The position numbers and the translations under genes were made by a program. From a virus, in the UHGV virus genome UHGV-0045954: a stretch of DNA of 26,836 nt; one strand, 5' to 3'. The notes below the pieces were generated by a model. That model worked only from the letters and a program-made list of their open reading frames with translations. It ran no database searches and had not been told where the DNA came from. The stretch's first letter is position 1, and each line of letters opens with the position of its first letter. Below, one piece after another: positions 20,307 to 22,833 of this stretch.

Positions 20307-20945
20307 ATGAGCAAGCAAACTATATCTGAACGCATAACCCAACGTATGCATGCGCTAAACCTGAAAGGCAAAGACCTTGTCAATGGCACTGGCGCATCAA
20401 AAGGCTCCGTAAGTCAATGGATGAACGGTGGAGGAGCGCCGTCCTCGCGTTACATAAGTTCACTGGCAAAAATATTGAAAGTAAACGAAAATTGGCTTCT
20501 TAATGGAGGAGAGTTAAATACAGGTGATTCGCTTGATCTATCTTTACCGCCGATAAAAACGGTTCCGCTACTATCACTTCAGCAGGCAGCAAGCTGGAGT
20601 GATTATATGAAAAATTCCTCAATAACCTCTTGTGTGCAGCTTGTCGGAGAAATCCCGGTCAATACCTTTGCAGTTGTTCTAGAGAGTGACAGTATGTCAA
20701 CATCTGGTGGGGGAGTTTCCATCCCAAATGGTTCAACAGTTTTTGTTGATCCCGATCGAACCGTACAACCAGGAAATATTGTCCTTGCCTTACCCAAAGG
20801 GACCACAACACCTGTCATTCGTAAACTGGAGATAGAAGGGCCGGATATTCTTTTAGTCCCCACGAATCCTCGCTACCCTTCAATTATGCTGGATGATCTA
20901 TCTTGCATATTGGGCGTATGCTTTAAAATTCAACAAGATATTTAA
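20307..20945 (+). CDS. CI-like repressor (HTH plus S24 LexA-like autopeptidase domain)
   Basis: 212 aa; N-terminal HTH (GTGASKGSVSQWMNG), C-terminal SDSM Ser motif and downstream Lys (VIRKLE); no SD, consistent with a leaderless pRM-type transcript. Confidence 0.8.
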   Translation: MSKQTISERITQRMHALNLKGKDLVNGTGASKGSVSQWMNGGGAPSSRYISSLAKILKVNENWLLNGGELNTGDSLDLSLPPIKTVPLLSLQQAASWSDYMKNSSITSCVQLVGEIPVNTFAVVLESDSMSTSGGGVSIPNGSTVFVDPDRTVQPGNIVLALPKGTTTPVIRKLEIEGPDILLVPTNPRYPSIMLDDLSCILGVCFKIQQDI

Positions 20946-21376: not shown

Positions 21377-21577
21377 TTACTTCAGAAAGTCTCTGGTGAG
21401 TGCACCGAAGATATTGTCAACGATTTCGTCATCAAACTGCGAGGACTCATCTTCAGTTACAAGGTGACCACAATTTTTGCAGATGGCTCCCGCGAAACTG
21501 TCAGAGCCCTGCGGTTTAAAGGATGTGTCAAAGACTTCGCCACCACATTCTGGGCAAGAAAACTTGATTGTATTCAT
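21377..21577 (-). CDS. small zinc-ribbon protein (66 aa)
   Basis: ATG 21577 with GAGAGGAAA RBS; two CxxC pairs at ribbon spacing (CPECGG ... CKNCGH); overlaps antisense to a 118-aa plus-strand ORF, see findings. Confidence 0.45.
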   Translation of the reverse strand: MNTIKFSCPECGGEVFDTSFKPQGSDSFAGAICKNCGHLVTEDESSQFDDEIVDNIFGALTRDFLK

Positions 21578-21669
21578 AACCAATTTCCTCTCGAGTAACA
21601 GACCCCTCAGAGGATACCACCTCGCCTGACGTGGTTAAAAGCAGGCAACGCTAACCACAAGGAGCCGAC

Positions 21670-21888
21670 ATGCAGAAACGAGAACCCGTCATCATCGCGC
21701 CAGACTATACCGATGATGAACTTTATGAGTGGATGCGCCAGAAAATTAATGCAGCGCAGGATTTGAAATGGGCCAATGAAGCCAGGGCTAAGCAGGCTGA
21801 AAATCTGTCCGCTCTGGAGCAGGATATCACCAGGCTGGAAAAAGCAGCGGCATTAAGCATTGCCAGAATGATTACATACCCGCGTTAA
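21670..21888 (+). CDS. hypothetical coiled-coil protein (72 aa)
   Basis: ATG 21670 with AAGGAG SD at 6 nt; product MQKREPVIIAPDYTDDELYEWMRQKINAAQDLKWANEARAKQAENLSALEQDITRLEKAAALSIARMITYPR. Confidence 0.6.
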   Translation: MQKREPVIIAPDYTDDELYEWMRQKINAAQDLKWANEARAKQAENLSALEQDITRLEKAAALSIARMITYPR

Positions 21889-22456
21889 TAGATAACCAAC
21901 GAAGCTAAGGTTGGTAATTAAGGAGTTCTCCACGGGTGAGGTGGAGTGCGTGCGCCGGACACGGGTGAGCATCCGGCACTGACAGTTTACTGAAAGGATA
22001 TTTCCCTGAAAAGTCAGACCATAACGCGAAAGCGCACGGCGAGGTAGCTGGTTCATAGATAGCCTGTCGTTAAATTTTCGTCGACCGTGCGCTTCCGGTT
22101 GTGGCAATCCGCGAAATGGCGCGGCGGTAAGTATGGCGGGGTTATTCCTTCCCCCGTTGAGGACACCGGGTTGTCAGGTTGACCATACGCTTAAGTGACA
22201 ACCCCACTGCAACGCCCTCTGTTATCAATTTTCTGGTGACGTTTGGCGGTATCAGTTTTACTCCGTGACTGCTCTGCCGCCCTTTTTAAAGTGAATTTTG
22301 TGATGCGGTGAATGCGGCTAAGCGCACGCGGAACAGTTAAAACCAAAAACAGTGTTATGGGTGGATTCTCTGTATCCGGCGTTAATTGTTAACTGGTTAA
22401 CGTCACCTGGAGGCACCAGGCACCGCATCACAAAACTCATTGTTGAGGGCGCGATA

Positions 22457-22645
22457 ATGAAAACGTTATTACCAAACGTTAATACGTCTGAAGGTTGTTT
22501 TGAAATTGGTGTCACTATCAGTAATCCTGTATTTACTGAAGATGCCATTAACAAAAGAAAACACGAACGGGAGTTATTAAATAAAGTATGCATTGTTTCA
22601 ATGCTGGCCCGTTTACGTCTGATGCCAAAAGGATGTGCACAATGA
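22457..22645 (+). CDS. hypothetical small protein (62 aa)
   Basis: ATG 22457 with GAGGG RBS; stop overlaps next start (ATGA), indicating translational coupling. Confidence 0.45.
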   Translation: MKTLLPNVNTSEGCFEIGVTISNPVFTEDAINKRKHERELLNKVCIVSMLARLRLMPKGCAQ

Positions 22646-22833
22646 ATCCAGTATTTGCACTTATTCTGACGGTTTTTCTTGTTTCCGGAGAGCCAGTTGA
22701 TATTGCAGTCAGTGTTCACAGAACAATGCAGGAATGTATGGCAGCAGCAACCGAACAGAAAATTCCAGGCAACTGTTATCCGGTCGATAAAGTTATTCAC
22801 CAGGATAATAACGAAATCCCGGCAGGATTTTAA
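22642..22833 (+). CDS. hypothetical small protein with N-terminal signal-peptide-like segment (63 aa)
   Basis: ATG 22642 coupled to upstream ORF; MNPVFALILTVFLVSGEP... hydrophobic N-terminus; two Cys in the mature region. Confidence 0.45.
   Translation: MNPVFALILTVFLVSGEPVDIAVSVHRTMQECMAAATEQKIPGNCYPVDKVIHQDNNEIPAGF

Follow-up and report, generated by a model that had tools for sequence, protein, structure and literature searches.

DicF, a probable RNase III processing stem and an STnc100-like RNA core in the ydfC–dicB spacer of a Qin-like prophage

Introduction

Intercistronic RNase III processing sites are familiar from phage early mRNAs, e.g. those of the lambda N leader and of the T7 early region. 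The dicF locus of the dicBF operon has been studied since 1989-1990 and, as later papers summarize the early work, the cleavage sites published for it number two for RNase III and one for RNase E. DicF is an RNA excised from a polycistronic mRNA (PMC10448788, PMC5069750 and PMC9438474, citing Faubladier et al. 1990). According to the same three papers, the 5′ end of its 53-nt form is made by RNase E and the 3′ end by a Rho-independent terminator, and a 190-nt, rnc-dependent form arises from an RNase III cut about 137 nt upstream (PMC10448788, PMC5069750, PMC9438474). Two of them attribute a 72-nt form, extended at its 3′ end, to RNase III processing of read-through mRNA (PMC5069750, PMC9438474). 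Of the two RNase III sites, Ragunathan et al. 2023 (PMC10448788) describe the upstream one and leave the downstream one unmentioned. DicF blocks cell division, remodels metabolism and, in EHEC, acts on virulence gene expression.

A second set of described RNAs is also pertinent. The STnc100 and PasD RNAs are encoded by prophages (Salmonella Fels-1, Stx phages, EPEC) and are abundant. Canonical STnc100 copies are abundant in EHEC, with one verified by Northern blot, and PasD is Hfq-bound and has RIL-seq targets. No paper linking STnc100/PasD to the spacer between dicF and dicB was found.

The DNA considered here, referred to as the window, is the whole stretch of 26,836 nucleotides of the virus genome UHGV-0045954. 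A preliminary description, made from its letters only, had drawn attention to about 570 bp (21889-22456) as a noncoding stretch in which nothing known was recognized, and to a perfect inverted repeat within it for which it offered an RNA-level, a protein-binding and a retron-like explanation. The stretch proves to hold the gene for the DicF sRNA, and the repeat is best considered together with it.

Identity of the locus

Positions 21889-22456 are the ydfC–dicB intergenic region of the dicBF operon of a Qin-like lambdoid prophage, one that still has exonuclease, excisionase and integrase genes. The genes flanking it in the matching E. coli genomes are annotated ydfC, dicB and ydfD in RefSeq, and these flanks together with the DicF match identify the supposedly noncoding stretch as the dicBF operon spacer holding a classic sRNA gene. 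The segment is widespread: by megablast it is present in 4,756 of 5,426 complete E. coli genomes, with one strain 100% identical and K-12 MG1655 96.8% identical over ydfC to ydfD. RefSeq annotates no CDS within 21889-22456 in the identical genome or in K-12, and no RNA feature in the spacer in either of them, which is why the spacer looks empty. The earlier judgement that it contains no credible ORF is sound, the sole plus-strand ORF of the conserved part (22087-22182, 31 aa) being frameshifted in K-12 by a 1-nt indel. A Pfam search with YdfC gave no family.

The order ydfC, dicF, dicB, ydfD is the same in the dicBF operon of K-12 Qin, and some 15 differences are spread over 572 aligned intergenic columns, with none in the DicF columns. 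Both putative RNase III hairpins dealt with below are common to K-12 Qin and the window. Upstream the two diverge, with a LexA-like repressor and an ECs_2282-family gene here in place of the dicA, ydfA and ydfB of K-12. The former is a 212-aa CI/LexA-like ORF at 20307-20945 (+), 5′ of ydfC, of which RefSeq calls the C-terminal 113 aa only; the latter, a zinc-binding gene, is on the opposite strand at 21377-21583 (-), also 5′ of ydfC. Near-identical E. coli-type dicF loci also occur in metagenome-assembled genomes (MAGs) assigned to Veillonella parvula (L006) and Collinsella sp. (L008), for which binning contamination seems the likeliest explanation, and a near-identical dicF locus is present in a soil MAG labelled ‘Proteobacteria bacterium’ (L007).

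Table 1. Features of the dicBF operon in the window (positions are those of the window)
Feature	Position	Strand	Basis or remark
ydfC, 72 aa, upstream gene of the dicBF operon	21670-21888	+	RefSeq, 100%-identical genome and K-12
Variable region 3′ of ydfC, three small hairpins	21889-22018	+	repeats, MFE fold
Long irregular hairpin, core arms 22027-22039 / 22085-22097	22019-22104	+	inverted repeat, folds
Structured leader of the 190-nt DicF precursor	22098-22229	+	hairpins 22109-22124, 22137-22156, 22169-22203
dicF, 53-nt sRNA form	22230-22287	+	single-stranded 5′ part, GGCGG...CCGCC terminator hairpin, U5 tail
Closing stem, 5′ arm (stem of 19-20 bp)	22292-22310	+	inverted repeat, consensus fold
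STnc100-like four-helix core	22311-22420	+	Rfam, consensus fold of 48 copies, superfamily alignment
Core: AAU linker		+	
Core: P1	22314-22329	+	
Core: P2	22330-22377	+	
Core: P3	22378-22404	+	
Core: P4 (CCUGG-AGGCA-CCAGG)	22406-22420	+	
Closing stem, 3′ arm	22421-22439	+	inverted repeat, consensus fold
dicB Shine-Dalgarno GAGGG	22445-22449	+	7 nt 5′ of the ATG at 22457; read from sequence
dicB, 62 aa, cell-division inhibitor	22457-22645	+	Pfam DicB E = 5e-40; RefSeq
ydfD	22642-22833	+	next after dicB; RefSeq

DicF and the sequence upstream of it

An Rfam scan, one of the checks suggested in the preliminary description, returned in the stretch a sub-threshold match to STnc100 (considered below) and a full-length one to DicF. 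The latter (RF00039) covers 22231-22282 (+) and model positions 1-52 of 52, with 76.7 bits (gathering threshold 48). A Rho-independent terminator follows the usual plan, the GGCGG...CCGCC hairpin being succeeded by TTTTT at 22283-22287. The sequence is that of the characterized K-12 DicF and thus has the same target-pairing regions. To the extent that the stretch seemed mysterious because of its emptiness, the mystery is resolved by the presence of the dicF locus, and that locus, with its probable RNase III processing stem, is an already known object.

For comparative purposes the exact DicF core pattern gave 8 loci in genome contigs, and diversity was drawn instead from viral contigs, from which DicF loci were gathered with two independent anchors, the DicF core and a small inner hairpin, UCACCnGGAGGCACCnGGCAC. 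Among 98 unique DicF loci, conservation is 93-98% between about 22084 and DicF, whereas everything leftward is mosaic, with just 55-85% in 21889-22018. The break sits at the long irregular hairpin, 22019-22104. Its lower stem is kept in 49 of 49 sequence variants, with one U.G to C-G interchange, and its apex is swapped. This hairpin is probably the RNase III substrate that gives the 190-nt DicF its 5′ end, which, going by the published lengths as later papers relay them, would lie at about 22093-22098 on the 3′ strand of the hairpin.

The leader, 22098-22221, turns up elsewhere unaccompanied by the STnc100-like core, namely in Stx2c phages, cdtI phages and the ‘dicF-like region’ of phage P1, and comparison with the last of these reveals compensatory changes in the leader hairpins 22137-22156 and 22169-22203. 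In the Stx2c phage case (L227:901-1023) what comes after the leader is another terminator hairpin, which has in common with DicF only the UUUGGCGGUAcCAG arm. The P1 region (L228:953-1054) is located 3′ of the C1-controlled ban promoter and 5′ of tRNA genes.

The three small stem-loops that had been noticed at the left end are indeed present in the MFE fold, at 21895-21915, 21929-21947 and 21954-21978, and no clear compensatory change was found in them among the 98 unique DicF loci. Just 3′ of the ydfC stop codon, the two adjacent hairpins 21929-21947 and 21954-21978 both display the 10-nt sequence CACGGGTGAG, and this hairpin pair is present in roughly half of the DicF loci.

The inverted repeat as a closing stem

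The perfect 15-nt inverted repeat, TTTTGTGATGCGGTG (22296-22310) and CACCGCATCACAAAA (22421-22435) with 110 nt between its arms, is exactly as first described, and its length is far beyond chance: 1000 dinucleotide-preserving shuffles of 21889-22456 gave perfect inverted repeats of at most 13 nt (mode 8). At 95% complementarity the arms of the repeat lengthen to 19 nt (22292-22310 with 22421-22439). When 22288-22470 is folded as RNA (-64.6 kcal/mol, z = -4.5, with 0 of 200 shuffles as good), the repeat closes a multi-branch domain. Folding with covariation among relatives, also suggested at the outset, bears out the helix and its conservation: the consensus fold of 48 unique DicF-linked copies has a 20-pair closing stem in which 959 of 960 cells are paired. 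The 15-nt core and 20 pairs amount to about two turns of mostly unbroken double-stranded RNA, as expected of a stem that RNase III recognizes. Similarity of the right-hand part to other contexts stops just past the 3′ arm.

The manner in which the stem varies is informative about the level at which selection acts. G.U or U.G pairs occupy 87 of the 960 stem cells in the 48 unique copies, the variation being mostly between G-C and G.U but also between A-U and G.U; one position is C-G in 37 copies, U.G in 8, U-A in 2 and mismatched in 1. Even between K-12 and the window, two pairs that are G-C in the latter are G.U in the former, through one C to T difference per arm. As a G.U pair corresponds to an A.C mismatch on the opposite strand or in duplex DNA, the constraint acts on plus-strand RNA, i.e. 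on the operon transcript. The invariant GGUGA with which the 5′ arm ends (22307-22311) is complementary both to CACC in the 3′ arm (22421-22424) and to UCACC where the last hairpin begins (22403-22407), making alternative pairing possible.

Most probably, RNase III acts on the helix formed by the repeat when transcription has run past the DicF terminator, and so parts DicF from the dicB-ydfD message. With the stem cleaved in read-through RNA, the repeat would act as an intercistronic RNA processing site. It matches the processing site described in 1990, insofar as that description is transmitted by later citations. The 3′ end of 72-nt DicF, being 19 nt past the 53-nt end, would fall within the closing stem, at 22301-22306 inside the 5′ arm, a placement that is arithmetic on published lengths taken via secondary citations and is uncertain by about 5 nt.

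The model joins two kinds of information. DicF identity, the stem, its conservation at the RNA level and on one strand, and the relationship of the core to STnc100 come from the comparisons made here; the dependence on RNase III and on RNase E, and the species of 53, 72 and 190 nt, are taken from the K-12 literature as reported in the papers cited above. Transcription from a putative early-left promoter would read through ydfC, and an RNase III cut in the upstream hairpin would yield the 190-nt structured precursor, within which RNase E, cutting at about 22230, would create the DicF 5′ end. Most transcripts would end at the DicF terminator, giving the 53-nt form, a repressor of ftsZ and other mRNAs. 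Those that read through would fold the two arms into the 19-20-bp stem, and its cleavage by RNase III would release 72-nt DicF, an excised structured core and a dicB-ydfD mRNA with a short leader. From the 2-nt 3′-overhang geometry of RNase III products, the cuts are expected near 22302/22303 and 22430/22431, which would make the core some 128 nt long and leave dicB a leader of some 26 nt. Stem cleavage may have an effect on dicB expression.

The STnc100-like core and a possible third product

Between the arms is a domain with relatives of its own. Positions 22294-22434 match the Rfam model STnc100 (RF02076), over model positions 21-154, at 38.8 bits, which is below the gathering threshold of 47 (E = 2.3e-6), and the outer helix of that model coincides with the 15-bp inverted repeat. 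In common with STnc100/PasD are the multi-helix core with its internal hairpins, a covarying closing stem, GGUGAAU after the 5′ arm, the UCACCnGGAGGCACCnGGCACC hairpin before the 3′ arm, and carriage by lambdoid prophages. Two other candidates for the identity of the core, the put-like antiterminator RNA of HK022 and a tRNA-like cloverleaf, gave no such Rfam match. The GTTAAC-TG-GTTAAC noticed earlier inside the repeat is present at 22388-22401, where it is the loop and 3′ arm of P3, a helix that itself shows compensatory changes in the 48 DicF-linked copies. P2 is a hypervariable cassette, with at least 8 unrelated versions differing in sequence and length between near-identical flanks.

An alignment of the wider superfamily comprised 59 elements, 13 of them DicF-linked or closely related and the rest STnc100-type, and GGUGAAU and UCACCnGGAGGCACCnGGCACC are invariant in all. 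The sequence of the closing stem varies freely with pairing kept, as in GAUGCGGUG/CACCGCAUC, GCAUGGUG/CACCAUGC and GCGUGGUG/CACCACGC, and 6 of 10 closing-stem pairs have double-sided changes. Its covariation score is 0.339, with slid controls at 0.10-0.12 and 0 of 500 shuffles reaching the observed value, figures that overstate independence, given the relatedness of the sequences and the two anchors that the search pattern held fixed; even so, the compensatory changes are plain to see. The stem differs in length within the superfamily, from 6-9 bp in most STnc100-type relatives to 19-20 bp in the DicF-linked elements. From the shortness in the former it follows that selection did not shape the core itself as a substrate of RNase III, and the lengthening in the latter brings the stem to what such a substrate needs.

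There are also clear differences from canonical STnc100, which is the same core plus its own Rho-independent terminator. That 3′ terminator (model about 175-198) is absent here, with the match ending at 154 and the dicB Shine-Dalgarno sequence directly after it. The 5′ leader of STnc100 is missing too, and P1 differs in sequence and register. The position in the prophage is likewise different, canonical STnc100 following Q and tRNA in the late region, and the spacer element following DicF in the early-left operon. Both kinds occur in this one prophage, as the window has two canonical STnc100 copies, at 11986-12174 (-) and 12450-12643 (-), scoring 132.5 and 138 bits. They are between a Q-like antiterminator with tRNA-Ile and the holin gene, about 10 kb from DicF, and EHEC EDL933 has the same layout. 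The tRNA (tRNA-Ile in RefSeq) is at 12997-13069 (-), and a sok/hokD locus is at 16068-16243 (-).

These relationships raise the possibility, less likely than not, that the spacer is a diverged, terminator-less sRNA of the STnc100/PasD superfamily, which cleavage by RNase III would free as a stable molecule of about 128 nt and which would have targets of its own. In that case the main purpose of the stem would be to define and protect this RNA, a third product of the dicBF operon, and this is compatible with the processing model. The statistical significance and extent of the STnc100 match, the invariant motifs and covarying stem held in common with that family, and the known abundance of canonical STnc100 copies and Hfq association of PasD all speak for it. 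Against it are the bit score being short of the Rfam threshold, the hypervariability of the central hairpin P2, the failure to find a paper reporting an RNA from the dicF-dicB spacer, and the missing family terminator. In Hfq-dependent sRNAs the terminator is normally part of the Hfq-binding module. On this reading, DicF plus core would form a portable cassette, set by phages immediately before unrelated septation-inhibitor genes (dicB or kil).

Proximity to the start of dicB and of kil

Where dicB is absent, the next gene encodes the Kil septation inhibitor (PHROG 294, E = 1e-30 to 1e-34); Pfam gave no family for these kil-type proteins, and they were identified as Kil by PHROGs. Such loci are in the viral contigs L033, L007 and L159, and at L230:1173-1394 in the Shigella phage 75/02 Stx, where the gene is annotated Kil. 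As kil follows the cassette in the loci that lack dicB, the RNA module precedes either of two unrelated division inhibitors, which suggests joint selection of the RNA module and a division-blocking protein. The long stem persists in the kil variants as 10 bp, a bulged A and then 9 bp.

The distance from the stem to the dicB Shine-Dalgarno sequence is 9 nt from the perfect core (22435), close to the 10 nt given before, and 6 nt from the extended arm (22439). With RNase III cuts being able to activate downstream translation, as with the lambda N leader, T7 early mRNAs and adhE, a role for the stem in translational control of dicB merits consideration. The fold would hinder 30S binding at the ribosome binding site or a standby site, with the cut, or unfolding, switching on synthesis of toxic DicB. 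We consider this unlikely. The extended stem does end at the edge of a ribosome footprint, and the module is always directly before the gene for a toxic septation inhibitor, dicB or kil. However, the Shine-Dalgarno sequence and the AUG are both outside the stem, and the predicted unpaired state of each, and of -20 to +15, swings with the choice of fragment, with no consistent difference between cut and uncut forms. In addition, the kil variants differ in sequence 3′ of a stem that is unchanged. [quoted passage not shown]

The DNA- and protein-level alternatives are rejected. The idea that the arms are a palindrome pair in DNA binding a protein, as an operator or recombination site, or a degenerate retron-like a1/a2 pair, draws on nothing but the perfect 15-bp repeat and the GTTAAC palindromes, and is highly improbable given that the numerous G.U cells would fail to pair in DNA or on the other strand, that the compensatory changes keep pairing and not sequence, that the GTTAAC copies are part of P3, and, for the retron, that no reverse transcriptase is annotated over about 8,200-28,700 in window coordinates (RefSeq, identical genome), where the genes are ordinary lambdoid ones, and that the element is in a family of processed prophage RNAs. 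More improbable still is a decayed protein-coding gene, to which just the length of the stretch points, as no intact ORF turned up in the homologues (98 unique upstream segments, 48 unique core copies), indels are tolerated, and conservation tracks RNA helices rather than codons. Neither of the two outcomes that the preliminary description had named as refuting it, an intact protein gene in homologous prophages or a repeat not conserved in relatives, was observed.

Comparison with known systems

With dicF and its RNase III processing described decades ago, what is added here is modest. All that is new is that the dicF-dicB spacer is structurally akin to STnc100/PasD, together with the association of the cassette with division inhibitors. 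The kinship has practical value in that the family thereby gains a member in K-12, where genetic work is easy, and one already associated with a ribonuclease. From a broader perspective, the probable processing site has parallels in the RNase III sites of the lambda N leader and the T7 early region, where likewise a long helix separates units of a polycistronic early transcript. It is unlike them in that the helix here closes a four-helix domain, and in that one of the units separated is an sRNA.
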